The notes: a model not told the origin generated them from the sequence alone. DNA of 63,820 nucleotides, filler included, from 6 parts of 6 records of this genome joined end to end with filler, not necessarily neighbours in it; one strand, 5' to 3'. Shown: positions 2,750 through 52,429, numbered from the whole stretch's first letter. Numbers and translations: made by a program.

Positions 2750-3466
2750 TCAAGTTCCGACCTGGCGCACGAGCCGCTCGGCCGCCTCGACCCGCTCGGA
2801 ATAGCGCTCCGTCAGATATGCGCTTTGCCCGCGCAGCAGCAGGGTGAACTTGACCAGTTCCTCCATGACATCGACCACGCGGCGATAATAGGATGACGCA
2901 TGCATTCGCCCGCTCTCGTCGAATTCGCCGTATGCCCTGGCGACGGAAGATTGGTTGGGGATGGTGAACATCCGCATCCAACGGCCGAGAATACGCATCT
3001 GATTGACGGTATTGAAGCTCTGGGACCCGCCGCAAACCTGCATCAGCGCCAGTGTCCGTCCCTGTGTCGGTCGCACGCCCCCTGTAGACAATGGCAGCCA
3101 GTCGATCTGGGTTTTGAGGACCGAACTCATCGCGCCGTGCCGTTCGGGCGAGCACCAGACATGGGCTTCGGACCAGATCGAAGCGGACCGCAACTCCTGC
3201 ACCTTCGCATGGTTTTCATCCGTGCTGCCGACCAGCGGAAGGCCATGCGGATCGAAAATCCGGACCTCGGCGCCGAAAGCCTCAAGCAAACGCGCCGCCT
3301 CCTCGGTCAAAAGCCGCGAATAGGAGCGTTCGCGCAGTGATCCGTACAACATCAACACCCTCGGCGGATGCGTGATCCGGTTGCCGGAAAACAGGCGTTC
3401 CGGATCGACAGGGCGAAACGCCGTCACATCAAGCGCGGGCATCGCCTCGGCGTCCGGCGGGCTCAT
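2750..3466 (-). CDS. arsH: Arsenical resistance NADPH-dependent FMN reductase ArsH
   Basis: [42 protein letters not shown] motifs; ATGA overlap with arsC. Confidence 0.95.
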
Positions 3467-3948: not shown

Positions 3949-4701
3949 TCAATCACCCGGATATTCCACCCTCATGAAATAGAGCCCCTCCGGCGGGGCG
4001 ACCGGTCCGCAGGCCTTGCGATCGCGCGCCTCCAGCGCCTGGCGCACATCCTCCGCCGACATCTTGCCTTCTCCGGCAAGCTTCAGCGTTCCGGCAAACG
4101 AGCGGATCTGGTTGTGCAGGAAGCTCTGGGCGGTGGCGCGGATCTCGATGATCTCCCCCGCCCGCGTCACGTCGAGCCCGTCGAGCGTGCGCACCGGCGA
4201 TTTTGCCTGGCAGTGAACCGAGCGGAAGGTGGTGAAGTCATGCCTGCCGACGAGCACCTGGGCTGCCGCGTGCATCGCTTCGTGATCGAGCGGCTTCGGC
4301 ACCCACCAGCCGCGCTTCCATTCGAGCGCCGGGTGGGCGCGGCGGTTGATGATGCGGTAGAGATAATGCCGCCGAAGCGCGGAAAACCGGGCGTCGAACT
4401 CCGGATCGGCCTCAACCACATCGACCACCGAAATACTGTCGCGGGCAAGCCTGAGATGCGCATTGACCGCATTCAGAAGCGTGAACGGGCTCCAGGGCTT
4501 TGCCAGATCGACATGCACCACCTGGCCGCGGGCATGAACGCCGGAATCGGTGCGCCCCGCGCCGCGGATGGAAACGGTCTCGCCGGAAAACCCTTCAATG
4601 GCCTCCTCCAGCGCGCTCTGGACCGAGCGCCCCTCGGCCTGACGCTGCCAGCCGACAAAGGCAGTGCCGTCATATTCGACCTTCAGGCGATAACGCGGCA
4701 T
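3949..4701 (-). CDS. truA: tRNA pseudouridine(38-40) synthase
   Basis: [37 protein letters not shown]. Confidence 0.97.
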
Positions 4702-39207: not shown

Positions 39208-39645
39208 TCAAGCGACCGCCGCGAAGCACTCCTCGAATTCCGCGCGCGCGGCCAATTCTTCCGTATCGTCCCCCGGATTGAGGCAAGCCAGTGCACGATT
39301 GGCCCGCTCCAGGCTCTTGCCCGACAATTCAGGCGCCTTTTCGGCGACAGCCTGCATTTCCGGCATAATGCCGTGACAGTGAAGGACGAGATCGCAGCCC
39401 GCCGCAAGGATTGCTTCGGCCCGTTCTGAGAAATCCCCAGAAAGTGCGTGCATGGACACGTCGTCGCTCATGAGGAGTCCGTCGAAGCCGATCTCCCCAC
39501 GGATGATGTCGCGCACCACCTTCCCGGATGTGGTTGCCGGGCGTTCGGGATCTACCGCATGGAAGACAATATGCGCGGTCATCGCCATCGGCAGGTCAGC
39601 CAGCGCCTTGAAAGGCACGAAATCGTGTGTGCGCAGTTCCTCCAG
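39208..39645 (-). CDS. nagZ: Beta-N-acetylhexosaminidase (GH3), 5'-partial
   Basis: PF..L, MTAH, IR.EIGFDGLLMSDD, AGCD; conserved nagZ-scpAB order. Confidence 0.9.
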   Translation of the reverse strand: MEELRTHDFVPFKALADLPMAMTAHIVFHAVDPERPATTSGKVVRDIIRGEIGFDGLLMSDDVSMHALSGDFSERAEAILAAGCDLVLHCHGIMPEMQAVAEKAPELSGKSLERANRALACLNPGDDTEELAARAEFEECFAAVA

Positions 39646-39745: not shown

Positions 39746-39773
39746 GGGGGTTCAAGTCCCTCCTCCGCTACCA
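39746..39773 (+). tRNA. 3' end of a tRNA, probably alphaproteobacterial elongator tRNA-Met; gene or att duplication, cut by the contig edge
   Basis: GGGGG-TTCAAGT-CCCTC T-arm plus CTCCGCT-A-CCA; isotype is from recalled similarity, the anticodon is not visible. Confidence 0.75.
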
Positions 39774-39841
39774 TTTTTCTCTCATAAAAACAGTAAGTTA
39801 GATTTTCGCCCTGCCTCGGCGAGCCGCCATTTTTGGCTCTT

Positions 39842-39860
39842 GGGGACAATTTAGGGACAG
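39842..39860. repeat. Tandem GGGACA repeats, putative integrase arm-binding sites beside the tRNA-Met end
   Basis: GGGGACAATTTAGGGACAG about 70 nt downstream of the tRNA CCA. Confidence 0.5.
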
Positions 39861-39996
39861 TAAGAACAAGAAAGCTTCAATGCGTTACCGCAAAACAGAA
39901 ATGAGTTTGTAGAAGAAGAATCCATGCCGCTTGCAATGCCCCAACCCGAGGGCAATACCGTGTGAGGTACGGCTCTTAAAATTGAAAGAGGTGATG

Positions 39997-40587
39997 ATGG
40001 CCGAGTTCGTCCAGCTTCGAATTTCACTGAACAACATTGAGCCCGAAATCTGGCGACGCATCATCGTGCCCGGAAATCTGAACCTACATGAACTGCATGG
40101 CCTTCTTCAGGGGGCAATGGGATGGGAAAACTACCACCTTTATGGCTATACGATTGCAGACAAGCGTTACGAGCTGCCAGAGCGCAGTGCGGACGGCCCA
40201 GAAGAAGGCAGCCTGGATGCGCGTGAGGTGCGGCTAGATAAAACCGTGCGCGTCGGCGAGTCGATTTTATATCGCTATGATTTTGGCGACGGTTGGACAC
40301 ATACCGTCACCCGTGAACGCCTGACGCGGCCAATTCCAAACGTTTTTTTCGTCGGCTTGTGCCTCGAAGGTGCAAACGCTTGCCCGCCGGAAGATGTTGG
40401 CGGTGAGCCCGGCTACGAACGCCACTTGACCGATTTAAAGAAGGGAAAGGGCGACGCATACAGAAATGCTATTTCATGGCGAGGCGCATTTGACCCGAAG
40501 CTATTCAGTCCGACACAAGCGACCCAAGCGATGTCGATGTTCGCTGTGATGATGAATTTGCGGCGCGAGGGGTTTGACTGGCTTTGA
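39997..40587 (+). CDS. Plasmid pRiA4b ORF-3 family protein
   Basis: PEIWRRI.VP, LH..LQ.AMGWENYHLY, Y.YDFGDGW.H, CPPEDVGG..GY. Confidence 0.9.
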   Translation: MAEFVQLRISLNNIEPEIWRRIIVPGNLNLHELHGLLQGAMGWENYHLYGYTIADKRYELPERSADGPEEGSLDAREVRLDKTVRVGESILYRYDFGDGWTHTVTRERLTRPIPNVFFVGLCLEGANACPPEDVGGEPGYERHLTDLKKGKGDAYRNAISWRGAFDPKLFSPTQATQAMSMFAVMMNLRREGFDWL

Positions 40588-40612
40588 TCTAATTTGACTG
40601 GCTTTGATCTAA
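40573..40612 (+). repeat. Perfect 20-bp tandem duplication
   Basis: TTTGACTGGCTTTGATCTAA twice, spanning the stop codon of the pRiA4b ORF. Confidence 0.9.
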
Positions 40613-40636
40613 CAAGAACGTTCCGCTCCCTTTGCT

Positions 40637-41563
40637 TTAGATCGCTTTTTCGCTGAGCTTTCGCTCAAGTTGTTCCACAAGTTGAGACCGGGCGTGCGAA
40701 GACATTTTGTCTAAGTTGAGCTGGCGCCACTGGACTGCCGGAAGCTCCGGAACATGCTCGATCCCTAGCAGTGACCAGTCTGGTGACCCTTTCTCAAAAC
40801 CAATCAGAAATGCTTTGTGGTCCTCTGGCATTTCTCCGACAACAGCGTTGATCAACGATTCTCTCGCATTGAGGAGTTCATCCAGATCAATCGGTTCTTT
40901 GGTCATGCCTGCGAAACCACGTTCAAATTCCTGGCCAATATCTTTTCTGGTAGGCCCGATCACTTCATGCATCGGTCGGTCATGGCTCAGCAGATAGACG
41001 ATGAAGGCTCGCCGCAAATCGTCGGTAATGCCTTCATTGGCAAGCAGGTCTCGGACGTCGAATAAGTCTCTTGGGTGTTGGCGATCAAGCGCGGCGACGA
41101 CCTTGCCACCATATAGGTCGGCAAAAGAGACCACCTGCATTTCGGCATAGCCGAAAACATCCTCAACAGCAGGCATCACGGTGCGTTCTTCCGCCTCGAA
41201 CACGCAGCCGCGTAGCACTGGGGTTACCTCGATTTTGATTTGCACGCCGTTACCGCGTGCCAACAGCTTTGTGACGGCACCTTCTTTGTTGGGAGAGGCG
41301 GGTACAATATCTTCCGCCGGAGATCCCGAACCCGATGCAACAGCGATACGCTTCATTGCGGCATCTATCGCTTCGAGCGAATCCGAGCGCGATTGTACGG
41401 GTAAATAAGTGAGGTCTATATCCACCGAGAGGCGCGGCATGTCACGGACGAACAGATTGATTGCTGTTCCGCCTTTTAGGGCAAAGCACGGCTCGTCCGC
41501 GACAAATGGCAGGACGCGTACCAGTAGCTCCACCTGACGCCGATATTGTTCACTATAGGGCAT
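40637..41563 (-). CDS. abiEii: AbiEii/AbiGii nucleotidyltransferase toxin (type IV TA)
   Basis: FALKGGTAINLF, PRLSVDIDL, KIEV, GKVVAALDRQHPRDLFD; start at MPYSEQ overlapping the antitoxin stop. Confidence 0.92.
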   Translation of the reverse strand: MPYSEQYRRQVELLVRVLPFVADEPCFALKGGTAINLFVRDMPRLSVDIDLTYLPVQSRSDSLEAIDAAMKRIAVASGSGSPAEDIVPASPNKEGAVTKLLARGNGVQIKIEVTPVLRGCVFEAEERTVMPAVEDVFGYAEMQVVSFADLYGGKVVAALDRQHPRDLFDVRDLLANEGITDDLRRAFIVYLLSHDRPMHEVIGPTRKDIGQEFERGFAGMTKEPIDLDELLNARESLINAVVGEMPEDHKAFLIGFEKGSPDWSLLGIEHVPELPAVQWRQLNLDKMSSHARSQLVEQLERKLSEKAI

Positions 41564-42401
41564 CGAGATCCCCCGGTACTGTGATCCGGTAGACGGGATC
41601 GAATTTACCGCCACGCACCAACATGCGGTCGCCGGTCCCCAGATCGAAGTCTTTCGGGTCGACACGATTGCGCCATCGCGGTTTGTGGCGATCAGCAAAG
41701 TAGAAAAACAGTCGCTTGACCTTGACGCTCTTGCAATCCGCGAGAAGCTTATTCAGGCGGTTGGGGCTGAGATTGAGCAATCCCTCGGCCAGCTTATCGA
41801 CCATATGAAAGCTTTCATTGTTGGGTAGCTCGTCCAGAAGCTCAAAATATGCGCGTTCTGGAGCAGAGACGGTCATGGGCCAATCCCATTGGCCCCACGG
41901 CATCACTTTGAAGCTGTTGCCGTGAATGGGATCGTTGCTCCGAACGTCACTAGTTTGTGTGTTCCAATTCAAACTTGTCAGCGCACGTGTGATCGGTTGG
42001 TTTTTGAATAGGCGGGTGCTCTTGTGCAGCACAAATTTCTGCGGGATGCTCAGCTTATTCATCCAGCCAGGCAGCTTCTCCTCTCCGTAGAGGTGAACCT
42101 CTTTTTGTTCGTGCGATAGAAAATGCGCGTAGCCCTGAAGTTCCAATGCTGTGCGCCCACCCACAATCAGGGGAATCTGCATGATGTCTTGCAGAGAGAT
42201 AATCACCTGCTCCCATCGTAGCGAGCCTCGTGGTCTGCGAAATACGCCCCTTGCAGGCTGTTCCAGCCAGCCTGATTTCAGGTATTGCGCTCGCAAAGAT
42301 CGCTCATAACCATGCTTGGTCAGCCAACGCGCTGATACCAGCAGGCCCTCAGGCACCTCGTGCTCTAAACGCTTTAATTTTGACAAATTTCGTTCATTCA
42401 T
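41553..42401 (-). CDS. abiEi: AbiEi family antitoxin / transcriptional regulator
   Basis: N-terminal wHTH (Y.KSGWL...RGVF), GGRTALELQGYAH, SAPERA..E, C.SVKVKRLF; upstream of the toxin. Confidence 0.9.
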   Translation of the reverse strand: MNERNLSKLKRLEHEVPEGLLVSARWLTKHGYERSLRAQYLKSGWLEQPARGVFRRPRGSLRWEQVIISLQDIMQIPLIVGGRTALELQGYAHFLSHEQKEVHLYGEEKLPGWMNKLSIPQKFVLHKSTRLFKNQPITRALTSLNWNTQTSDVRSNDPIHGNSFKVMPWGQWDWPMTVSAPERAYFELLDELPNNESFHMVDKLAEGLLNLSPNRLNKLLADCKSVKVKRLFFYFADRHKPRWRNRVDPKDFDLGTGDRMLVRGGKFDPVYRITVPGDLDAL

Positions 42402-42470
42402 ACTGAACAAAATAACATTTTTTCAAAGTGACGGCAATGCCAGCTTTAAAAATGATTAAATTTGTTCAGT
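42402..42470. promoter_or_regulatory. Long imperfect inverted repeat over the abiE promoter, putative AbiEi operator
   Basis: ACTGAACAAAATAACATTTTTTCAAAG versus CTTTAAAAATGATTAAATTTGTTCAGT; the outer 10 bp pair perfectly. Confidence 0.7.
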
Positions 42471-42578
42471 TTCACTGTGCAAAGCGCTTCTGGTGTCAAA
42501 GTGACGGGTTGGGTGATGTCAGAGTGAATGGAACGGTCAACACATCAAATGGGGCGCCTGAGCGACGGATGAGCTATT

Positions 42579-43709
42579 CTATGATGACTCATTCTTGAAA
42601 ACCGCTTTGTTCATGCGCTCTACGACGCTGATCGTATGCGGCTCGCTGAGGTGGGCATAACGCTTCACCATTTGTAGCGTCTTATGTCCGAGAACCTCGG
42701 CAATTTCAGATGGTGTCGCGCCGTTCATGGCTAGGTACGACGCGGCAGAGTGTCTTAGGTCGTGAAAGCGGAAGTCTTCAATGTTGGCTTTTGCAAGAGC
42801 GATGGCCCAGTCGTTGTCAATGTAGACTGGCTTTGCGCCATCTGGACGAGGGAAGACGTAGCCTGTTGAGTTTGGAGCCGATGCTCGTAGCTGCGTCAGA
42901 ACCTTGTGCGCTAAGCTGACGATAGGGATGGAGCGGCGCTCGTCGTTCTTGGTTTCGTGTAAGCGAATGACGTTGCGCTTCAGGTCAACCTCAGGCCAAC
43001 GGAGGTTTAGCATTTCACCCCGTCGTGCACCCGTTGAAAGAGTGACGATAACAAGTGGATACAAGAGCTTGTTAGAGCTCTCACGGCAGGCGCTCAGGAG
43101 CCGCTGTCGTTCGTCATCAGATAGAAACCTTACCCGTCCTCTTGGCTCTGACGGACGCCTCACTTTTCGAACGGGATTGTCGTTTACCCAACCCCACTCG
43201 TTGACGGCGTGGGTGTACATGACTGACAGGCTCGCAAGGTAGCGATTAACTGTCGCCGGAGATTTTGCCCGTCTCGCGTTGCCGTCAGTATCGCGGAGTT
43301 CTTTGCCATTAGAGTCAGTTGTCGGTGTGGTCAGCAATTCATCGCGGAGCGCTGCAATTCGAGAGGGTGTTATGTCTGCGAGGATGTAAGGGCCTAGTTT
43401 AAGCTTCCACCAAGTCAGGTGGCATTTTATGGCCCTTGCTGCTGTTGGTTTTTTATGTCGGAAGGGAGCGACTTTGGAGAGGTATTGGTCAACCAGTTCC
43501 CCAAATGTACGTCGCTTTTCCTCAACGGTTTTGAAGTAGCGGTTTTCACGCAAGGCTGCTTCAGTTTGTGTCGCCCAGGTGCGTGCATCAACTTTCCGCT
43601 CGAACGTCGCGGTTTGCGTTGGGTAACCTTTAAGACGGATCACGACTTTATAGTGTGTTTTCCCATCTTTTGTCGTTCTTTCTTTAATCCAAGCCAATAA
43701 AAATACCAA
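42579..43709 (-). CDS. Tyrosine recombinase / integrase
   Basis: Catalytic R (TGARRGE), K (ETKN), HDLRH, LGH, RYAH; N-terminal arm-binding region; the start may be TTG 43697. Confidence 0.95.
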   Translation of the reverse strand: MVFLLAWIKERTTKDGKTHYKVVIRLKGYPTQTATFERKVDARTWATQTEAALRENRYFKTVEEKRRTFGELVDQYLSKVAPFRHKKPTAARAIKCHLTWWKLKLGPYILADITPSRIAALRDELLTTPTTDSNGKELRDTDGNARRAKSPATVNRYLASLSVMYTHAVNEWGWVNDNPVRKVRRPSEPRGRVRFLSDDERQRLLSACRESSNKLLYPLVIVTLSTGARRGEMLNLRWPEVDLKRNVIRLHETKNDERRSIPIVSLAHKVLTQLRASAPNSTGYVFPRPDGAKPVYIDNDWAIALAKANIEDFRFHDLRHSAASYLAMNGATPSEIAEVLGHKTLQMVKRYAHLSEPHTISVVERMNKAVFKNESS

Positions 43710-43763
43710 TAATTATTTTTCATATACTGTATTTATATAAGTATTTCGGGGGCTTTAGGCAAT

Positions 43764-43994
43764 AAAAATGGTGCAAAAATGGTGCAGTAAAATGTAAAAA
43801 TTGGCTTTATTTAACATAATTATTAAAAATCACTATTAAGTAATATATTGAAATTATTGATATTCATAAAATATCACATCAGGGAATAAAGGCGTGTGCG
43901 GGCTTAAAATCCTTCCAGTGTGGGTTCGACTCCCACCGTGGACACCAGCTTTCGCGATGCTCGACGGAAAAATGGTGCAGAAATGGTGCAGCAA
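43764..43994. mobile_element. attP-like site: tRNA-Leu core flanked on both sides by tandem AAATGGTGCA arm repeats
   Basis: AAAAATGGTGCAAAAATGGTGCAG (43764-43787) and AAAAATGGTGCAGAAATGGTGCAG (43968-43991) around the tRNA fragment; AT-rich left arm. Confidence 0.75.
43903..43947 (+). pseudogene. 3' half of tRNA-Leu(TAA), short variable loop type; att core
   Basis: CT-TAA-AA loop, TCCTT, CCAGT, GTGGG-TTCGACT-CCCAC, CGTGGAC-A-CCA; no complementary 5' acceptor strand or D-arm upstream. Confidence 0.8.
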
Positions 43995-44134
43995 CAATCA
44001 GGCATTCACCATAAAGCTCATAAATACTTCCATCAAACTTGATCCCAGATACCGTCGCGGGAAGTGGAAAATTTCTTTTCATGATAAATGTAAATGCAAT
44101 GATTCAAGAATATCCTATTCCACCCTTAGGTGGC

Positions 44135-47100
44135 CTAACTGTATTTGCGCGCCATAGTGCGTAAACGAATCAGGTTTGCGTCTCTTGCGAGCTCGGGAGC
44201 GGAAGCTTCAATAGCATCAAGGCAAGCAGTCAAATCTTTAGAATACCAGGGGCTGTCACCAATTATGCTGGCCAGTAAGGTAAGTGCCTCTTCAGGGAAC
44301 GCCGTAGCGAGTTCCTGTTCGCCGAGTTTTTGCAACACCAGCCCGGAAAATCGCACATGCACAAACCAGCCATTGAATAGCTGAACAGCGTCTGGGAAAT
44401 TTTGTCCGGCAGAGACGCATACTTGAGCTAGCTGCTCACTGAGTTCTGGCGATCTCAGTTCATCCTGCTGCGGCCAAATGTTCCGCCAGAATGGGAGTAC
44501 ATGGTTGACCCAATAGTCATGGCGCTGGTCGTCTGTGCCGCTGAGTGCGTTGTTCATGGCCAAAGCGGCTTGTGGCAAGGCGTCGGCGGTAAGATGCGAG
44601 AATGCTTGGCGGTATGCCGGAGCCTTATCGGAGGAGATTGGGTCAAGAGCGGCGAAAGTTAGAAACTGAATGTATATTTTACCAAGATTTTCTAGCGCCG
44701 TGACGTGTGATGCAGTCTCCAAAAAATCTGGCTCAATCTCCTCGATCAACGGCGTTACCAGTCGGGGAGCCCTCATGAAGCCTTGCCACATACGAGACGC
44801 CTCCTCCGGGTCGCTGTCCCAATGCATGCGGGGAAGAAGATTCTCCCTGGTCCATTCAGGAGCAACGACGAAAAGACGCGCTAGATTGGATGCGAGGACC
44901 ACTCGACCGTGACGGAACCGAGGTTCGTGTTCGTTGCTTACACGCGTGAACACTGGCCGTAAATCGTCGGGGAGGCCTTGGCCGTTCGTTAAGCCGCGAG
45001 ATTCCCAAAGAATAATCAGGGCCTCTGTGGTCTTGCCAATGGGATGATTAATCGCTGCAGTGACTGCATCTCGTTTCTCCTGACCATAACCTATCTGCAG
45101 CTCCAGGATTCGCTCGCAGATCCCAATAAAGGTAGCGGCTCGTTCGTTCACAGATCTTGCAACATCCGTAAGCCAGAAAGAGAGCGCATGATCAACGCTT
45201 TCTAGGGAAGGATCTGGTAAAGACGCGACCGTATCCGCCATTTCTTCCCAAGACGGCCGCGCGTGCTCGCGGTCCCCCCATGCATAAAGGGCAGTTTCCC
45301 ATCTAGTCTCCGGCCATTCTCCTTTATCTGCGAGGCGTTTTAAAGCCGCATAAGAGCGCTGAGGCTCTTTCTTACAAATGTCTCGCCAGTCATCGTCTTG
45401 CCGATGATGGCGGGTCGCGACAGGACGGCGTAGCCACTCGGTAAGTTGGTCAAGGTCTCTAGGAGCGCGCTCTCTTTTGAACTCGGATTCAAAACCTGGA
45501 TCTCCCGTGCCGTAGGTCCAAATGGAAAACTCTTCTCTTTCGTCGTCTGCGAACTGCCAGTCAGGGAATTTTGTCCGGATGGTCTCTAAATTTGTTGCCG
45601 CGGCCTCGCCCAGAGGAGTTGCGAACCGCTCCAATTGACCCAGACGTTTGAAGATTTCCTTCTGAGCGATATTGTCCCAGTCCTCCTCAGATAGGTCGTC
45701 GACATACATATTCCTGGGCGGGCCAAGTAAGATAGCAGCCTCTATGTGCTCCCGATCCGCTTGCCCGAGATGTTGGGCCCGTGTTGCGAGAAGCCGCATT
45801 GTTTCCCTGAGGGTATCATTCGCCCAAAGCCACCATGCTTCGTCTGCAATTAGCCAGTTCACCCATTGCGCATTCTCAATGCTCTCGACTCTGCTCGCGG
45901 CAAAATAGGCCAAACGCTTGAATGTAGGATACTCGATTGATTGCCACTCTGTGGCAATTGAAGCGGCCCGATGACTGTCTTGAGCACAAACACCAATCCA
46001 GGCGTCGCGTAGTAGCCGGATTAGAATGGTCCAGTCCCGCTGATGGTGATCGCGGTTTTGCCAATGATCTTCGATTGAAGGGATATCCCAAGATGAACGG
46101 TCGCCTCGGTGGCTTGCAATTTCAACAGATGCCTGCATATCCAATGAGTCGTGCAGAAGTGACTGAAGGGCCGGAAGCATGGAAATGAGTACCTTTCGCC
46201 ACGCGTCAGTTTCAGGCAGGTCTGTCAACAAACTCATTACGTCGTCAGTCGATAAGCACGGTCTAAAGTCAATCGCGGGCTTCGGCGTTTTGTCGGTCTC
46301 GCCATCGCTTGAAAAATCAAAAGAGCTAACGCTTCGCTCGATCTGAAGCCTTGGAGAGAGCATTTCCAAAAGCTCATCGCGGAGAGAAAAGGTCAGCCCC
46401 TCCCGTTCAAAGCGGCGACGCCAGGTGACAGCGTTAAAATTCTGCAATGAGTTAACTATACGGCCTCTCAAGAATAGGCCCCAAACGGCGCGCATTCTCA
46501 TGTCTGGAATGGAATTTGGTGCTGCAGCGCGCATCGCCTCTTTGTCGTCGAGACGATCATCTGTCTCTAGGTCCGCAATGCGGTCCAGAGCCCATTGTAT
46601 TTGGTTGGCAAGCACTGGGTGCAATTCGCCACCTTGGTTGGCGAGCCAGAGAGCCAGCGCTGGGTCGTTCAGGTGCCGAGAAACCCATCGACACAGATGA
46701 TGTAACACGGGATCTAGCGATGAGCTTTCGTGGGCCGCTGCGGCGAGCCTCATGCGAGGAGCTAATTTGTATGGACTGGGTCTGTCGATCAGGCTGAACG
46801 TGGCCGGATGTTGTTCATCCAGAGTGGGTGTAACCCCGAATAATGGCAGGTCATGCTCCGCAAAAAGCCTTTCATCGAATGCGAATAGCCAGTCCAGCGA
46901 AGGCACGGGATCTAGATCCGCGAATCGTCGGGCAGGCAAACCGGAGGGGTCTGATAACGCCCATAACAATCGACCAACGAAATCGTCTTGATCGGTACTG
47001 GCTTGGGGAATGGAGAGCGCCGTTTCGCTAACGATGCGTTCCTTACCTTGAATGCCATCCTTGTATGTCTCTGCCCATGCCCAGAGCGTTTCATGTAAAG

Positions 47101-47947
47101 CGGAGTGATCGTTTGTATTGCCTGTGGGGATTTCGTAGAGGATCGGAACTACACCCTTGGCGCTCCATTCTTCATAATTGTCGGTCATTTTCTCTGGAGA
47201 GGAACCGGCAAATGCATAAGCTTGGGGAGGCATCTCCCCAAGTCTCCGGTCGGCTGCTAGCGCGTCCATCAAGTAACGAAGAACCGGATCCTCTATGCTA
47301 TATCCCACAAAACATACGACGAAGTTCATGAAGAGATTAACGGTAAACTCGGCTGCCCATCCCTCGCTCAGATATGCGAGGCCAAAATCTCCACTTGTCA
47401 GGACGAGCTCGTTCAAGCGCTCAGCGTCGTTGATTTCCGGTAACAGGCCATGAAGGTAGACGAGCCCATTCCATCTGCTTTTCTTCGCTAGAGGCAACTG
47501 AGGGGCGGCAAAGTGCCGGATGGTCTCACGATCCCCCTCGGTAACATGCACGAACAACCTATCGAAGTTTGTTGTGACAACCCTTAGTGCTCCGTGCCGG
47601 TCCCGACCCAGTCGTATGAGCGATTCATGGGTCCTAGCCGCATTCGGTGGGTCAAGATTTGGCTCAAGCGAGCTCAACAAGGCTGGCCGGACAGCAGCGC
47701 GGCCTCCCGGGTATCGTCTCTCTAGTTGATCCAACGCGCTATCAAAGCGATTGGCTTTTAGATCCCGTTGCTCCAAAGATCCAGGTCGGTAGCCAAGACG
47801 GCCATAAAGGCGTTCGACGAGCCCTTTGAAACTTGGAAGGTCCGCAGGATATGAGATCCCTGCACCGCAAAAGAATACGACTTTTCCTTCTTCATGCGAC
47901 TGTAGCAACGAGTCAGGGATATTTGGTCCATTGCGAATAAATTGCAT
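44135..47947 (-). CDS. dsr1: Defence-associated sirtuin Dsr1-like (SIR2 NADase domain plus long helical C-terminus)
   Basis: MQFI.NGP.IP..LLQ.HEEG.VVFFCGAGISYPA.LP, TTNFD, YLHG, LVLTSGDFGLAYL, FVGYS..DP; 1270 aa, matching recalled Dsr1 size and N-terminus. Confidence 0.85.
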   Translation of the reverse strand: MQFIRNGPNIPDSLLQSHEEGKVVFFCGAGISYPADLPSFKGLVERLYGRLGYRPGSLEQRDLKANRFDSALDQLERRYPGGRAAVRPALLSSLEPNLDPPNAARTHESLIRLGRDRHGALRVVTTNFDRLFVHVTEGDRETIRHFAAPQLPLAKKSRWNGLVYLHGLLPEINDAERLNELVLTSGDFGLAYLSEGWAAEFTVNLFMNFVVCFVGYSIEDPVLRYLMDALAADRRLGEMPPQAYAFAGSSPEKMTDNYEEWSAKGVVPILYEIPTGNTNDHSALHETLWAWAETYKDGIQGKERIVSETALSIPQASTDQDDFVGRLLWALSDPSGLPARRFADLDPVPSLDWLFAFDERLFAEHDLPLFGVTPTLDEQHPATFSLIDRPSPYKLAPRMRLAAAAHESSSLDPVLHHLCRWVSRHLNDPALALWLANQGGELHPVLANQIQWALDRIADLETDDRLDDKEAMRAAAPNSIPDMRMRAVWGLFLRGRIVNSLQNFNAVTWRRRFEREGLTFSLRDELLEMLSPRLQIERSVSSFDFSSDGETDKTPKPAIDFRPCLSTDDVMSLLTDLPETDAWRKVLISMLPALQSLLHDSLDMQASVEIASHRGDRSSWDIPSIEDHWQNRDHHQRDWTILIRLLRDAWIGVCAQDSHRAASIATEWQSIEYPTFKRLAYFAASRVESIENAQWVNWLIADEAWWLWANDTLRETMRLLATRAQHLGQADREHIEAAILLGPPRNMYVDDLSEEDWDNIAQKEIFKRLGQLERFATPLGEAAATNLETIRTKFPDWQFADDEREEFSIWTYGTGDPGFESEFKRERAPRDLDQLTEWLRRPVATRHHRQDDDWRDICKKEPQRSYAALKRLADKGEWPETRWETALYAWGDREHARPSWEEMADTVASLPDPSLESVDHALSFWLTDVARSVNERAATFIGICERILELQIGYGQEKRDAVTAAINHPIGKTTEALIILWESRGLTNGQGLPDDLRPVFTRVSNEHEPRFRHGRVVLASNLARLFVVAPEWTRENLLPRMHWDSDPEEASRMWQGFMRAPRLVTPLIEEIEPDFLETASHVTALENLGKIYIQFLTFAALDPISSDKAPAYRQAFSHLTADALPQAALAMNNALSGTDDQRHDYWVNHVLPFWRNIWPQQDELRSPELSEQLAQVCVSAGQNFPDAVQLFNGWFVHVRFSGLVLQKLGEQELATAFPEEALTLLASIIGDSPWYSKDLTACLDAIEASAPELARDANLIRLRTMARKYS

Positions 47948-48332
47948 GCGATATCCCTACTTGGTTTGAGCGGGTGTCGAATACTCTGTTGTGGGTAGAG
48001 ATTTATTCGAAAATTTCAAAATGTCTTCTCTTTGTTTCTCCTTCCCCTAAATGCGGGATGTTCACAAGTGTGATGGGAGTTGGCTTCTTTTCTCCTTCGG
48101 TCGTTAGAGCAATAAATCATAGAGCCACCACGCCTTTCACACACCTGATACCAATTTCCCGTTCGGGCCTTCAAAAAGCGTGTCATCGCTCTCAATTTGC
48201 GCCCGCAAATCTCAATAGTCAGCCAAAGCCCAGTTCGCAGATGCGAGATGAGAGGGCTTTAAACCGCAGAATTCTGCCCCCATAATAATTGTATACAACT
48301 TATTAGTGTAAACAAAATTGGGGAGGGTGGAA

Positions 48333-48557
48333 ATGAATGTTCAGAATATTTTGACGGTCTCACAACTGGCTGAGCTGAACCCCGCCTTTACGGAGCCGAC
48401 GTTGCGTTGGTGGATATTTCATGCGGATCGTTTTGATTTCAACAAATGCCTGATCCGCGTCGGCGGGCGGGTCTATATCGACCTCAGGGCTTTTACCAAG
48501 TGGCTGGACGCGCACCGCGCAGAGGCCTTTAACGACAATATTGAAGTCGTTGAGTAA
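48333..48557 (+). CDS. Small HTH DNA-binding protein, excisionase-like
   Basis: LTVSQLAE..PAFTE.TLRWWIF...IRVGGRVYID...F.KWL; GGAGG RBS. Confidence 0.75.
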   Translation: MNVQNILTVSQLAELNPAFTEPTLRWWIFHADRFDFNKCLIRVGGRVYIDLRAFTKWLDAHRAEAFNDNIEVVE

Positions 48558-48696
48558 GCCGGATCAATGAAATGGGGTTGGTTTAATTAAGTGGGCCGAT
48601 AGCGAGATCGCGATCAAACAATCTGCTGATTTATAGCTCATTTTCGCCCCGCGCCGCACTGCGGAAAAATGCGATTTTCCTTGTGCTATGCGGGCG

Positions 48697-48757
48697 GATT
48701 GCAAACTGGTGTTTGCAATCACGCTGCGCCAACACGTTGGCAAAACAGCGTAAGCCA
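48697..48757. other. Candidate oriT
   Basis: Two adjacent inverted repeats (GATTGCAAAC-tggt-GTTTGCAATC; ACGCTG.GCCAAC-ac-GTTGGC....CAGCGT) followed by TAAGCCA, upstream of the T4CP-relaxase genes. Confidence 0.55.
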
Positions 48758-48870
48758 TCACTACCGACCCTTTTTCTATTCTGGTGACGGTATCCGAAAA
48801 TTTCTAGTGCGTGAGGCTGTTTAAGCCTTTCGGAACCGCTTCCGTGTGACGGAAGGGGAAGGATAAATCT

Positions 48871-50391
48871 ATGTCATTATTACGTTTTTTATGGCGGTTC
48901 TATAAAGTCGCCTCTCTCTACCTGCCGCTGATTGTCGGATGTATGTTCGTGGCGCTTGGTGCGCTTGGCGGCGATTGGCTGCTGCATCCTGCCCTATGGG
49001 GCGTTCTGGGACTGATTGCTCTCATGGGGGCGCTGTTCCTGCGCCACTCGGTCAATCTCCCGGCCCGCGATACGCACGGCTCAGCATCATTTGCCAATTC
49101 TCGCGAGATTTCGCGCAGCGGGCTCTTTAAGCGCGGCGGCGTGATTATTGGCAAGTGGCGTGGTCGGTATCTGCGCTTTGCCCGCGAGGGGCATTTGCTC
49201 ACCTTTGCGCCAACGCGCTCCGGTAAGGGCGTGGGTTGCGTGATCCCAAACCTACTCGATCACCGGGGCTCGGTCGTGGTCTCGGACATCAAGGGCGAAA
49301 ACTACCGGGTCACCGCCCCCTGGCGCGCCGGGTTTAGCCGCGTGCTCGCTATTGCGCCCTTTAGTCGCGATATCGCGGGCGCCTGCTTTAATCCTTTGGA
49401 CTATATCCGGACGAGCCAGCCCGAAGACGTGGACGACGCGGCGATGATTGCTGATCTGTTGGTTGTCCCAAAGGGCCAGGACACATTCTGGGACAGTGAG
49501 GCCCAGAACCTGATCGCAGCGCTCTTGCTCTTTGCGGCCCACGATCTATCGCCTGAGGAGCGAAATCTTCATCACGTCTGGTCACTGCTTATGCGGGACC
49601 GGGATGAGTTTGATGAGGTGATTGCCGATATGCGCGCAAGCGATCATCAAGCTATCCGGCGTGCGGGCGACGGGTTCTCCCAGAAGGAAGAACGGGAGCG
49701 CTCTGCGGTGATCTCGACCGCGCAAACCCATATGAAAATCTGGAAGAGCCCGCTGCTGGCGGAAGCGACCAAACACTCGGACTTTGCACTCGAAGATATC
49801 AAGCGCGGCTGCCTCTCTCTCTACATCGTCATTCCGCCGGAACTGCTTGGGGTCTACCGGCCCTTCATGCGGTTGATGGTTGGGCTTGCGGCCTCGGCCA
49901 TGACGCGGGTTTCCGCGCTACCGGAAAAGCGCGTGCTGTTTCTGCTTGATGAGGTGGCCGCACTCGGGCGCATGTCGCCAATTGAGACGGGCATAAGCTA
50001 TCTCGCCGGGTACGGCGTGAGCTTGTGGCTGTTCTTCCAGGACTTGGATCAGCTCCAGAAGACCTATCCGAAGTGGCGCTCCGTCATCGCAAACTGCTCG
50101 GTACGTCAGGCCTTCGGTGTGTCCGACTATCAAACCGCAAAAGAACTCTCCGACATGATGGGCCAGCGCACCGTGCCTGCGATGAGCAAAGGGCTCTCGC
50201 GGGATTGGTTGGTGCCGGTGCCGGACGGCGTAAGCCGTCATATGGCCGAAACGGGCCGCCCGCTGATGACGCCGGACGAGATCATGACCATGCCGGAGGA
50301 CCGGCAGCTGATCTTCGTCCAGGCACTTAGGCCAATCCTGGCACGGAAAATCCGCTACTTTAGCGAGTGGATGTATCGCTTTCGGGCTTAG
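48871..50391 (+). CDS. Type IV coupling protein, VirD4/TraG family
   Basis: Two N-terminal TMs, HGSA.FA, APTRSGKG Walker A, DIKGEN, FNPLD, FLLDE Walker B, RPLMTPDE. Confidence 0.93.
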   Translation: MSLLRFLWRFYKVASLYLPLIVGCMFVALGALGGDWLLHPALWGVLGLIALMGALFLRHSVNLPARDTHGSASFANSREISRSGLFKRGGVIIGKWRGRYLRFAREGHLLTFAPTRSGKGVGCVIPNLLDHRGSVVVSDIKGENYRVTAPWRAGFSRVLAIAPFSRDIAGACFNPLDYIRTSQPEDVDDAAMIADLLVVPKGQDTFWDSEAQNLIAALLLFAAHDLSPEERNLHHVWSLLMRDRDEFDEVIADMRASDHQAIRRAGDGFSQKEERERSAVISTAQTHMKIWKSPLLAEATKHSDFALEDIKRGCLSLYIVIPPELLGVYRPFMRLMVGLAASAMTRVSALPEKRVLFLLDEVAALGRMSPIETGISYLAGYGVSLWLFFQDLDQLQKTYPKWRSVIANCSVRQAFGVSDYQTAKELSDMMGQRTVPAMSKGLSRDWLVPVPDGVSRHMAETGRPLMTPDEIMTMPEDRQLIFVQALRPILARKIRYFSEWMYRFRA

Positions 50392-50409
50392 TGGGGCAGG
50401 GCCAGAGGC

Positions 50410-52098
50410 ATGCGGTTTAAAATCCCGGCACGCCAGCCATCAAACTTTCGCGCATCGGCACGTTATCTCGCCGGGCGCAGTAAGGGCGTGACGCCTGAGC
50501 GGGTCCAATGGGTCTTTGCCCAAAACTTGCAAACGACCGATCCGGACGCCGCTGCTGCCATCATGGATGCGACCGCTGCGCGCTCAACCCGCTGCCGCAC
50601 GCCTGCCTACCATTTTATTCTGACCTTTGATCCAAAGGATGCGAAAGCGAAGAAGATCAGCCCGGACATTATGCGGGAGATTGCTGAGGAAACGATCTCG
50701 CGCATGGGGTTAAAGGAGTACCAGGCGCTGGTCTATGCCCATCGGGATACCGATCACCCGCATATGCACTTTCTGGTCAACCGGGTGCATCCGGTTGAGA
50801 GCAGGGCTTACAGTCGTCATGAGGACGGTAAACGCCTGACCGCACTCTGCCGCGACATTGCCAGAGAGCGGGGCCTCAATATCCCCAATGACCGCACCCG
50901 TGTGCGCGAGAACGAGCGCAACACCGGCCTCGATGATATTCCGCCGATGCCGACAGACGGGGACTATTGGCAGGCCAAAAACGGAGAGCGAGAGCCTGAG
51001 GCTGCTTTTCCCAAGGCCAAAGCAAATGAAATGCGCAAAGAGTTGCATGCGCTCTTTGGCAAGGCGACGTCATGGGAGCTGCTGTCCGACAGCCTAATGG
51101 AACGCGGCTATTACCTGCGCGAAAAGGGCCAGGGCATGGTGATCTCGGACGGTCTTGGTTATGTGAAACTGTCTGGCATGGGGCGCGGCATCCGCGCGAA
51201 GGGGCTTGAGAAACGCTTTGGGGAGAGCTTCAAGGCATTCGAGGTCCGGATGGCGGATAAGCTCAAGCGGCAGATTGATCGGGCACAGCCGCCGCTCGAT
51301 CTGCCGCCAGATATGAGTGACCAAGAACGCCGCCGCGCTGAAAAGCTCCATCGCTTGAAAGAGCGTGCTGCGTTTGAGCGCAAGGATCGTGTCCCGGCGC
51401 TGGATGAGGCCGACATTGAATTCCGCTACTGGCATATGCTGGAGCAGGGCCTGCGCCGCAAGGAACGCGATGTGGCGTACTGGAAGCGCCGTCATGGGGC
51501 TTTGGACGTGACCGTCGCCCGACGAGGCAAGCGCGCGCGTGATCAGAAGGTGGCTTTATCGAAGGAGCTGGCCAAGACCTATCGCGATCCTGAAAAGGCC
51601 ATGTCTCTCTGGAACAAGCTTGAGAAGGCTTACGGTGCCCGGGCCGCAACCAGTATGGTGCGGAAAGAGCCGTCCATCATCGGACGTTTGCAGGGTATCG
51701 ATGTGCTAGGCCGCAAGTCCGGCAAGCGAGAGAAGGCGGAAGCCACGCTCAAAGACCTCACCAAGCGCCGCCGCCAATGGAAATATGCCCGCGACGGCCT
51801 TGCTGATACCCAGGCCAAGCGAGAGCAGGCACTCCATAATCTCAACATCGCCCAGCGCGATCTCAACATGATGTATTTGGCCGTCGGCTCACCGGAACGG
51901 TTCCGGAAGATCGTCCTTGAGAAGATCAAACGCCGTGCCCAGGCACTCAATCGCGTGACCGCCAAGATGATCGAGCAATCGAACCTCACCGACGAGCGCA
52001 AACGGCAACTCACCAAAGCCTGGCGCCAACATCGCGAGCGTCAGCGGGAGAGAAGGCGAAAGCAGGGATTCGATATTCATAATGATTTTCATTTATAG
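50410..52098 (+). CDS. Relaxase (MOBP/VirD2-like) with BID-like region and basic C-terminal tail
   Basis: Motif I Tyr (ARYL), YHFILTFDP, AHRDTDHPHMHFLVNRVHP; Arg-rich end RQHRERQRERRRKQG. Confidence 0.9.
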   Translation: MRFKIPARQPSNFRASARYLAGRSKGVTPERVQWVFAQNLQTTDPDAAAAIMDATAARSTRCRTPAYHFILTFDPKDAKAKKISPDIMREIAEETISRMGLKEYQALVYAHRDTDHPHMHFLVNRVHPVESRAYSRHEDGKRLTALCRDIARERGLNIPNDRTRVRENERNTGLDDIPPMPTDGDYWQAKNGEREPEAAFPKAKANEMRKELHALFGKATSWELLSDSLMERGYYLREKGQGMVISDGLGYVKLSGMGRGIRAKGLEKRFGESFKAFEVRMADKLKRQIDRAQPPLDLPPDMSDQERRRAEKLHRLKERAAFERKDRVPALDEADIEFRYWHMLEQGLRRKERDVAYWKRRHGALDVTVARRGKRARDQKVALSKELAKTYRDPEKAMSLWNKLEKAYGARAATSMVRKEPSIIGRLQGIDVLGRKSGKREKAEATLKDLTKRRRQWKYARDGLADTQAKREQALHNLNIAQRDLNMMYLAVGSPERFRKIVLEKIKRRAQALNRVTAKMIEQSNLTDERKRQLTKAWRQHRERQRERRRKQGFDIHNDFHL

Positions 52099-52429
52099 AT
52101 TGTATTTAGGGATTCCTGATGAGGAACCTGGAGATGGATAATTGGGGCATTGAAAATCGGCAGCTTGGGTCTGACATTTTTGTTCGGTGTTTTGGCTTAC
52201 CGTTTGGTTCGCGTAGATCAAGTCGGTCAACAGGCTCAACGAGCTTCTCCCCTGGGCCTACGCTCAACAATGTCATGGAGTAGTCTCGTTAGAACCGTCT
52301 CGTATTGCCTTTGGTCTCCGCACCATCGCGTAAGTTCAGTTCCTTGACTAATTCCGTAAACTGGTTCGGTGCGGGCGGGGCCTTGGAGTTGTGAGCGACC
52401 GCTCTGCGAACCTCGGATTCCGCATTTTT

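Follow-up and report, generated by a model that had tools for sequence, protein, structure and literature searches.

About 31% of integrative mobilizable elements (IMEs) have been reported to carry defence systems, at a higher density than integrative and conjugative elements (ICEs) (PMC10201445). As characterized in PMC3985639, the AbiE system acts as a type IV toxin-antitoxin pair with a GTP-binding nucleotidyltransferase (NTase) as the toxin; it stabilised the plasmid pUC19, and in Streptococcus agalactiae it sits on the element ICESa2603rplL. The sirtuin DSR1 is described as lowering NAD+ transiently during infection and blocking phage phi29 without collapse of the culture (bioRxiv 10.1101/2021.12.14.472415). 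The island described here carries both an AbiE operon and a Dsr1 gene. It was found in a window (the whole stretch of DNA that was analysed) of 63,820 nt, which is made of six contigs joined by N44-TTAATTAATTAA-N44 spacers and is not one molecule. The island lies on the fifth contig, 39746-52429 (12,684 nt, GC 0.53), here called the island contig, so that what adjoins it in the window is not what adjoins it in the genome. Positions refer to the window unless a relative is named.

The island contig is best explained, with a probability of roughly 0.6, as the tRNA-proximal part of an integrative mobilizable island which carries AbiE together with Dsr1 in a swappable slot and belongs to a marine alphaproteobacterium-like host. 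The backbone consists of: (i) a tyrosine integrase with an adjacent attachment (att) site; (ii) a small helix-turn-helix (HTH) protein; (iii) a type IV coupling protein (T4CP); (iv) a MOBP relaxase. The AbiE operon is located in the left arm of the island, and full-length Dsr1 occupies a slot that is filled by other genes in relatives. Two relatives from marine metagenomes, L008 (11.0 kb) and L009 (19.7 kb), share with the island contig (12.7 kb) the tRNA-Met sequence and the 110 nt behind it, the gene of the 79-aa HTH protein, the T4CP and the relaxase, at 90.7-95.2% nucleotide identity. A first-pass annotation of this DNA had proposed a minimal mobilizable element that borrows a type IV secretion system (T4SS) and supplies phage defence. 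The T4SS-less module with integrase, AbiE and Dsr1 stands, but the contig holds neither a minimal nor a complete element, since both of its ends are cut and nikA and the origin of transfer (oriT) most likely lie beyond its edge.

The AbiE operon and Dsr1

The abiEi and abiEii genes are located on one strand, with abiEi upstream and an overlap of 11 nt between the end of abiEi (41553) and the ATG of abiEii (41563). AbiEii is matched by the PADLOC model PDLC02290 with 414.2 bits over profile positions 2-289 of 290, and its score against PF08843 (Table 1) exceeds the cut-off of 22.5 bits; the earlier assignment of this protein to the nucleotidyltransferase-family toxins is borne out by both models. 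Its translation contains KGGTAINL...SVDIDL (GG...DID), in agreement with the GG...DxD pattern which we take to be the NTase motif. By analogy with the published plasmid stabilisation (PMC3985639), AbiE may also serve as a stabiliser of the island.

Dsr1 is matched from end to end by PDLC02183 (1452.8 bits), residues 1-1269 of 1270 being aligned to profile positions 1-1273 of 1275, and its SIR2_2 domain is recognized by PF13289 with 68.7 bits, so that the name of a Dsr1-like sirtuin given to it at first is retained. In an alignment with KomC, a SIR2 NADase of solved structure (PDB 9xvc, the H146N mutant), residues N127 and H166 fall on the TTN and H146 positions. Dsr1 represents a single-gene system, with the att site and intergenic DNA as its neighbours and no conserved partner gene. 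AbiE and Dsr1 are arranged on either side of the integrase and att region, as had been noticed in the first-pass annotation. PADLOC, one of the checks proposed there, was run and returned strong matches for AbiEi, AbiEii and Dsr1, hence HMM matches are present for both SIR2 and AbiE. As the NAD+ loss published for DSR1 is transient and the culture does not collapse, the term "abortive infection" may overstate what Dsr1 does.

Table 1. Features of the island contig, in window positions, with the profile scores on which their names rest
Feature	Position	Strand	Evidence or remark
tRNA-Met(CAT) 3' end, 28 nt	39746..39773	+	T arm, acceptor 3' strand, CCA; cut by contig end
Segment of ~110 nt, 3' of tRNA-Met	39774..39883		kept in all three island variants
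PRiA4_ORF3-domain protein	39931..40587	+	PF07929 172.2 bits; probable start at ATG pair 39994/39997, end at 40587
abiEii, DUF1814 nucleotidyltransferase toxin, 308 aa from ATG at 41563	40637..41563	-	PF08843 149.6 bits
abiEi, antitoxin/regulator	41553..42410	-	PF17194 89.9 bits; PF11459 125.8 bits; PADLOC PDLC02227 308.5 bits
Tyrosine integrase	42579..43709	-	PF00589 100.7 bits; longest open reading frame, true start may be a few codons in
attP-like site	43766..43991	+	two 11-nt arm repeats, AT-rich spacer, tRNA-like 3' fragment, two more arm repeats
Variable cargo slot (here Dsr1 and ~200 nt of upstream DNA)	44001..48143		L009 similarity breaks at 44000, resumes at 48144
Dsr1, 1270 aa, N-terminal SIR2 NADase domain	44135..47947	-	PADLOC PDLC02183
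79-aa winged-helix-like protein, candidate excisionase/regulator	48318..48557	+	no profile match
126-nt insertion with internal inverted repeats, this copy only	48626..48751		between HTH gene and T4CP gene
VirD4/TraG-type coupling protein (T4CP), 506 aa	48871..50391	+	PF02534 304.5 bits
MOBP-type relaxase, 562 aa	50410..52098	+	PF03432 117.1 bits; HRDTDHPHMH motif
Gene entering from beyond the contig end, last 46 codons	52292..52429	-	138 nt; unknown family

Relatives and variable slots

The scan of reference genome contigs gave 7 relatives of the relaxase, four of which cover most of the protein at 41-44% identity, and the metagenome scan gave 10 relaxase loci, two of them (L008 and L009) at 93% identity. 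The relatives at 41-56% identity are found in metagenome-assembled genomes (MAGs) of Alphaproteobacteria, in Stappia and Roseovarius, and in one Halomonas MAG. L009 is colinear with the island contig over 39746-44000 (95.2%), 48144-48625 (93.6%) and 48752-52053 (90.7%). L008 keeps the tRNA-Met sequence with the following 110 nt and the HTH-T4CP-relaxase block, at 92-94%, and has a different left arm, with DUF5677, two small open reading frames (ORFs) and a 45%-identical integrase in the opposite orientation.

The slot that holds dsr1 in the island contig is occupied in L009 by 1.7 kb of other DNA encoding a 479-aa DUF6035/CoiA-nuclease-like protein, and in L008 by the DUF6035 gene together with a gene for a 417-aa protein. 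In the runs X3 and X1 there are contigs that span the slot with 1690 and 1510 nt of other sequence in its place, respectively; the lack of cover of both runs over 44399-47782 is to be read only together with these bridging contigs. The dsr1 position is thus a true variable slot. In the first-pass annotation it had been pictured as a defence hotspot, and of this the exchangeable cargo slot is present, but the other occupants match no PADLOC model and a known defence gene is seen in the slot in this copy only. PADLOC analysis of the alternative cargo of L008 and L009 left 14 of 16 proteins without a match, the remaining two being GajA and GajB, which lie farther downstream in L009. The alternative occupants of the slot are candidates for defence genes.

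A second variable slot extends from the relaxase to nikA; it contains ParE/ParD in L008, small ORFs in L009 and the cut gene of unknown family in the island contig. A segment of ~85 nt (window 48144-48216) is located upstream of the cargo gene in the first slot and is present twice in L008 (4650-4735 and 6016-6100), on either side of the 417-aa gene, each cargo gene of the minus strand being preceded by a copy. From its placement, this segment is possibly a promoter-bearing cassette junction.

Beyond nikA, L009 continues with a coiled-coil ORF, an orphan L9 homologue, a 385-aa ORF, the Gabija genes GajB and GajA (PADLOC scores of 52 and 138 bits), a short, unrelated integrase and a second T4CP that is 37% identical. 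This region has a mosaic appearance, with modules for mobilization and for defence. The L9 homologue (L009 11622-12326; TIGR00158, 120 bits) bears a C-terminal extension of ~85 aa. It was considered as a chromosomal marker which could guide to an empty site and was rejected: its best homologue in reference genomes reaches 60% identity, none of 18 loci has a tRNA-Met nearby, and no rpsR/rpsF is found upstream of it.

In the distant loci L001, L003, L010 and L013 the interval between relaxase and T4CP is filled with cargo of the defence type, among it a radical SAM gene with an AAA_21 ATPase, Eco57I-type and MmeI-type methylases, and PIN_12. L002 carries a type I restriction-modification system with RhuM, and a KwaB-like gene, beyond the relaxase.

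Attachment site and contig ends

The residues R229, H316, R319, H342 and Y351 are present in the translation of the integrase, which is 45% identical to that of L008. Its distant homologues (28-46% identity) lie within ~230 nt of a tRNA gene at 5 of 7 loci (Lys-UUU twice, Arg-CCG twice, Arg-UCU/His once), hence the integrase family is tRNA-associated. By alignment, none of these tRNAs resembles the core of the att site.

The region between int and dsr1 has, to judge by its layout, the anatomy of an attP. The arm repeats AAATGGTGCAR form tandem pairs at 43766 and 43777 and at 43970 and 43981, all four pointing the same way; if one mismatch is permitted, the repeat occurs 7 times in the window against 1.04 expected, a number reached in 0 of 100 shuffles. 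Between the pairs lies the core, a tRNA-like 3' fragment of 50 nt (43898-43947) comprising an anticodon arm, a 5-nt variable loop, a T arm, an acceptor 3' strand and CCA. In L009 the core and the arms are conserved, and the AT-rich spacer is variable. In run X3, stretches of 34-40 nt of the core are found with 3-4 differences (~90% identity) in five further contigs with different flanks, so that the core reads as tRNA-derived and recurrent.

The core had been taken for a Leu tRNA end at first. Its anticodon loop is CTTAAAA (UAA), but bacterial tRNA-Leu is characterized by a long variable arm, and the loop found here has 5 nt. ARAGORN called no tRNA in the window, and the 3' 30-mer and 23-mer of the core have no exact match in 185,579 species genomes. 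On these three grounds the Leu identity is doubtful. Of the integrase and attP reported earlier, the integrase and the attP-like anatomy are kept; an excised circle with attP is not, given that the contig ends without overlap and that the DNA of L009 runs into other genes.

A second fragment, similar to the 3' part of an initiator tRNA (…GGTTCAAATCC…CCCGCAACCA), is found at the left edge of the DUF6035 cassette (L008 ~3140-3185, L009 ~4265-4309). In L008 it stands directly after the integrase stop codon, and in L009 ~40 nt to the right of the integrase att site.

At its left end the island contig starts inside a tRNA-Met(CAT) gene, the full copy of which was identified by ARAGORN in L008 at 395-471, preceded by an ABC-permease fragment; the island contig aligns from L008 position 444. 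The segment behind the tRNA (39774-39883) is 93.5% identical to L008 444-581 and is included in the 95% match to L009, and L008 diverges beyond it. At its right end the contig stops inside a gene, and it is therefore a fragment and not a closed element. Alignment of public-run contigs to the window revealed in run X6 a 12,684-nt contig that is identical to the island contig and possibly its origin. The first 30 nt also begin a 10,283-nt contig of X6 with a different continuation, the depths being 60.9 for the island contig, 59.1 for the 10,283-nt contig and 147.5 for the common unitig (tRNA-Met 30-mer ~2.4x). Further contigs of runs X6 and X10 also contain the last 30-42 nt, the depth there being about doubled. 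Both contig ends are assembly breaks at repeats, and the 3' end of tRNA-Met occurs at least 2 times in the genome of run X6, as would be the case for attL/attR and equally for two tRNA-Met genes. The alternative continuation after the tRNA (runs X6, X10 and X3) was found in 0 of 103 loci and nowhere in the window.

These att and tRNA sequences bear on the question of how the island was put together. Tandem insertion with the same type of integrase leaves a P-core-P' junction. The attP-like site has this form and might, by extension, be the seam between a 4.2-kb islet reaching from tRNA-Met to att (PRiA4_ORF3, AbiE, int) and a separate, integrase-less mobilizable module (cargo, HTH, T4CP, relaxase, nikA), two units that need not move together. 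Such a composite of accreted elements is unlikely. It would suit the second tRNA-like fragment beside att in L009 and behind the oppositely oriented, 45%-identical integrase in L008, the wholly different left arm of L008 as compared with the island contig and L009 next to a conserved mobilization block, and the further int/T4CP set downstream in L009. However, the 3' end of tRNA-Met and the att core are only ~60% identical over 50 nt (hand comparison), with T loops differing at 2 of 7 positions, and so do not make an attL/attR pair; no arm repeats follow tRNA-Met, and the right-hand module would possess a candidate excisionase (Xis) and no integrase.

It is quite unlikely that the integrase and the P-core-P' site form an internal landing pad, that is, an integron-like capture platform which swaps defence cargo at tRNA-like att sites. 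It would fit the left border of the cargo slot, where variable DNA comes within 10 nt of the last arm repeat, the second tRNA-like fragment with the DUF6035 cassette and the 85-nt junction duplicated around the 417-aa gene of L008. The slot border at the arm repeats, the travelling tRNA-like fragment and the duplicated junction are hints that favour accretion or capture. Under the reading as an integrative mobilizable island, the intact attP-like site in a chromosome-like context is unexplained, and tandem accretion, exchange of the integration module and a cargo landing pad are all possible.

The left arm also contains the PRiA4_ORF3 gene, the product of which gave no PADLOC or NCBIfam match. 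A perfect 20-nt tandem duplication (TTTGACTGGCTTTGATCTAA x2, 40573-40612) spans its stop codon, and the X3 variant is ~21 nt shorter at this place.

The remaining contigs of the window are of mixed origin. Contigs 1-4 (1-39645) have a GC of 0.60-0.63 and encode alphaproteobacterial-type housekeeping genes, including serS, tatC, scpA/B, moeA and an autotransporter. The fourth contig closes with a NagZ-like glycosyl hydrolase family 3 gene (39208-39618) cut by the contig end; this cut at 39618 is an assembly break and no insertion site of the island. The sixth contig (52530-63820) carries eukaryote-type genes as long uninterrupted ORFs, all on the plus strand, assigned by Pfam to an AFG1 ATPase fragment, a SET-domain protein, a NIF/CTD-like phosphatase, OSCP and an aromatic amino-acid lyase, as well as a 947-aa beta-adaptin (Adaptin_N, 333 bits, with the appendage domain). 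The window is thus a mixture of bacterial and eukaryote-like contigs.

Transfer functions and comparison with known elements

The T4CP and the relaxase had been recognized in the first-pass annotation, and both are confirmed by Pfam (Table 1). The T4CP translation shows two N-terminal hydrophobic segments and SGKG/LLDE; the relaxase includes also a TraI_middle domain and a weak BID-like C-terminal stretch. The 79-aa protein shares 97% identity with both its orthologues, in L008 and L009. It had been called Xis-like, of which the small HTH-like ORF remains and the excisionase family match does not: no Pfam, NCBIfam or PADLOC model matches it, and a Foldseek search with its structural model gave nothing at E <= 0.001, the best E being 0.3. 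The model (AlphaFold, AF2, from a three-sequence alignment) has a mean pLDDT of 75.7 and a helix-helix-hairpin-helix layout. The weak Foldseek rows include Tn916 Xis (TM 0.51/0.64) and lambda gpNu1; the neighbours in the ESM Atlas are unnamed "DNA-binding/HTH" clusters, and the nearest named ones are excisionase-type (0.89-0.90), to be taken as a lead only.

The oriT-like element placed earlier between the HTH gene and the T4CP gene was not upheld. The IncP nick motif YATCCTGY is absent from the intergenic DNA of the island contig, including 48558-48870 (in the window it occurs 11 times against 7.6 expected), the conserved blocks described below are not intergenic in this contig, and part of the region is copy-specific. 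The latter part is the 126-nt insertion, which is absent in L008 and L009, is skipped by contigs of runs X1 and X3, and probably lies inside the stretch that had been taken for oriT. In L008 and L009 a NikA-like ribbon-helix-helix (RHH) gene is located on the minus strand beyond the relaxase and the second slot. In L009 the non-coding DNA upstream of nikA shows a conserved pattern which consists, in this order, of GCAAGATG..AC.AAAAC, a variable hairpin, GCATTCGAC, a hairpin, TCTCAAGC and CATCTTGC. A regular expression found this pattern in 8 of 12 loci, and L010 has it with one mismatch; 9 sequences were aligned. The last block, CATCTTGC, resembles ATCCTGC, the nick word of IncP. The region upstream of nikA is accordingly worded here as the best oriT candidate of the family. 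An inverted pair, GGCAAGATG / CATCTTGCC, ~130-150 nt apart, was also observed in this region in L009 (10810-11003) and in eight other loci. In the island contig the only matches to the blocks are two copies of TCTCAAGC, both within the relaxase gene, and the short nick words lie in coding ORFs; by comparison with the relatives, nikA and the candidate oriT most likely lie just beyond the right contig end.

No mating-pore (MPF) or replication-initiator family was found among the ORFs of the island contig sent to Pfam, in agreement with the first-pass annotation, and none of the 37 ORFs scanned in L008 and L009 matches a VirB/Trb family. These ORFs take in the 10 kb that follow the L009 relaxase, where neither a full virB operon nor phage structural genes were found. 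The absence of a T4SS thus refers to ~43 kb of family DNA (12.7 + 11.0 + 19.7 kb). A plasmid origin was rejected, there being no megablast match among 72,556 PLSDB plasmids; no relaxase encoded in PLSDB is matched over 80% of the length, the highest identity being 26%. A link to phages was likewise discarded, as IMG/VR contains no relative of the relaxase.

These searches make it improbable that the contig is a fragment of a self-transmissible ICE or of a large conjugative replicon with its mating-pore genes farther off than the DNA examined, and the upstream flank of L008, with its ABC permease fragment and tRNA, looks chromosomal. Such an origin would agree with the position of the distant relaxase relatives (41-44%) among ParB, DUF2958, DUF736 and MPTase-PolyVal genes, which are typical of large alphaproteobacterial conjugative elements, and with a contig that is cut at both ends and has a relative, L009, continuing with more mobile-element genes.

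Another alternative is a decayed non-mobile remnant, a defence island that merely keeps conjugation-related genes. Distant relatives have nikA immediately in front of the relaxase, and the T4CP behind the cargo; compared with them the order is scrambled, with nikA inverted and distal in the close relatives, and the att site is not the one used for the present insertion. Nevertheless, decay is distinctly improbable: all backbone ORFs are intact with their catalytic motifs, the 79-aa protein is 97%, the relaxase 93% and the DNA 91-94% identical across three variants that differ in cargo, and the att core and arms are conserved next to a variable spacer. This combination of an intact, conserved backbone, a conserved att and differing cargo speaks for purifying selection and recent exchange.

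As an integrative mobilizable island, the element might function in the following way. The integrase, with the HTH protein as directionality factor, would excise a circle, which NikA and the relaxase would nick at the oriT upstream of nikA. The element's own T4CP would then deliver the complex of relaxase and DNA to the T4SS of a conjugative element resident in the same cell, and in the recipient the integrase would re-integrate the element into a tRNA-type site. The resident island would protect its host from phage through AbiEii, the NTase toxin held in check by AbiEi, and through Dsr1, the SIR2 NADase lowering NAD+ on infection; AbiE may also penalise loss of the island.

Several points weigh against this reading. 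An integrated element is expected to be bounded by attL and attR, whereas the att site of the integrase is internal and intact, with arms on both sides, and the island adjoins a tRNA-Met unrelated to this core. Neither island end is defined, and neither blastn-short nor a 10-mer search of L009 (19.7 kb) detected the tRNA-Met 3' end a second time. The L9-like gene, Gabija, the second integrase and the second T4CP downstream in L009 may mean that the unit is larger or composite, and a T4SS may be present elsewhere in the island, beyond the 12.7, 11.0 and 19.7 kb examined. The family assignments are not all strong: the nearest NCBIfam model of the T4CP, IncP-type TraG/VirD4, gives 322 bits, under the equivalog cut-off of 674; the relaxase scores 169.9 bits with NF041893 TraI/MobA(P), under the cut-off of 250; and the Xis-like nature of the 79-aa protein, plausible from its modelled fold, is a weak assignment. 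Finally, nikA is not on the contig, nor are the oriT-like blocks in its intergenic DNA.

Defence on ICEs and IMEs has been documented on a large scale (PMC10201445), and AbiE carried by an integrated element is a textbook case (PMC3985639); the island, though well preserved, therefore adds an example and not a principle. Its value is local. It represents a compact family of marine alphaproteobacterial IMEs with its own coupling protein, a candidate conserved oriT and a relaxase lineage absent from known plasmids, in which two slots exchange cargo between copies otherwise >90% identical. The family is a convenient natural system in which new defence candidates can be sought, the DUF6035/CoiA-like nuclease and the 417-aa protein among them, and could show how cargo is exchanged beside an att site.

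Compared to IMEs encoding a relaxase and their own T4CP, as catalogued in streptococci and in various phyla (PMC5357655, PMC10201445), the island is similar in its tyrosine integrase, the absence of mating-pore genes in the DNA examined, its position next to a tRNA, its small size and its defence cargo. It differs in that the att ends are undefined and the att site of the integrase is internal and attP-like, that in relatives nikA and the oriT-like region are divergent and distal to the relaxase, and that the relaxase lineage has no close plasmid relative (best PLSDB identity 26%). The mating-pore cluster of an ICE is absent from the island contig, L008 and L009.

With the IncP/Ti-type MOBP relaxosome the island shares the HxDxDHxHxH relaxase domain with TraI_middle and the TraG/VirD4-like T4CP, and its relatives the NikA-like RHH protein. 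The differences relate to the sub-cut-off scores given above, the lack of an intergenic YATCCTGY and the candidate nick region, which reads CATCTTGC.

Dsr1 resembles the described system in being a single large protein with an N-terminal SIR2 domain, an end-to-end profile match and the catalytic Asn and His positions kept. In contrast to the tested DSR1, which was cloned into Bacillus subtilis (bioRxiv 10.1101/2021.12.14.472415), it resides on a proteobacterial-type island. As judged from its sequence, the AbiE operon reveals no structural difference from the system as it is presented in PMC3985639: it is bicistronic, its abiEi lies upstream of abiEii and overlaps it, the toxin is a DUF1814 NTase, AbiEi combines an N-terminal winged-helix domain with a C-terminal one, and the operon is carried by an integrated mobile element, like the S. 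agalactiae system on ICESa2603rplL.

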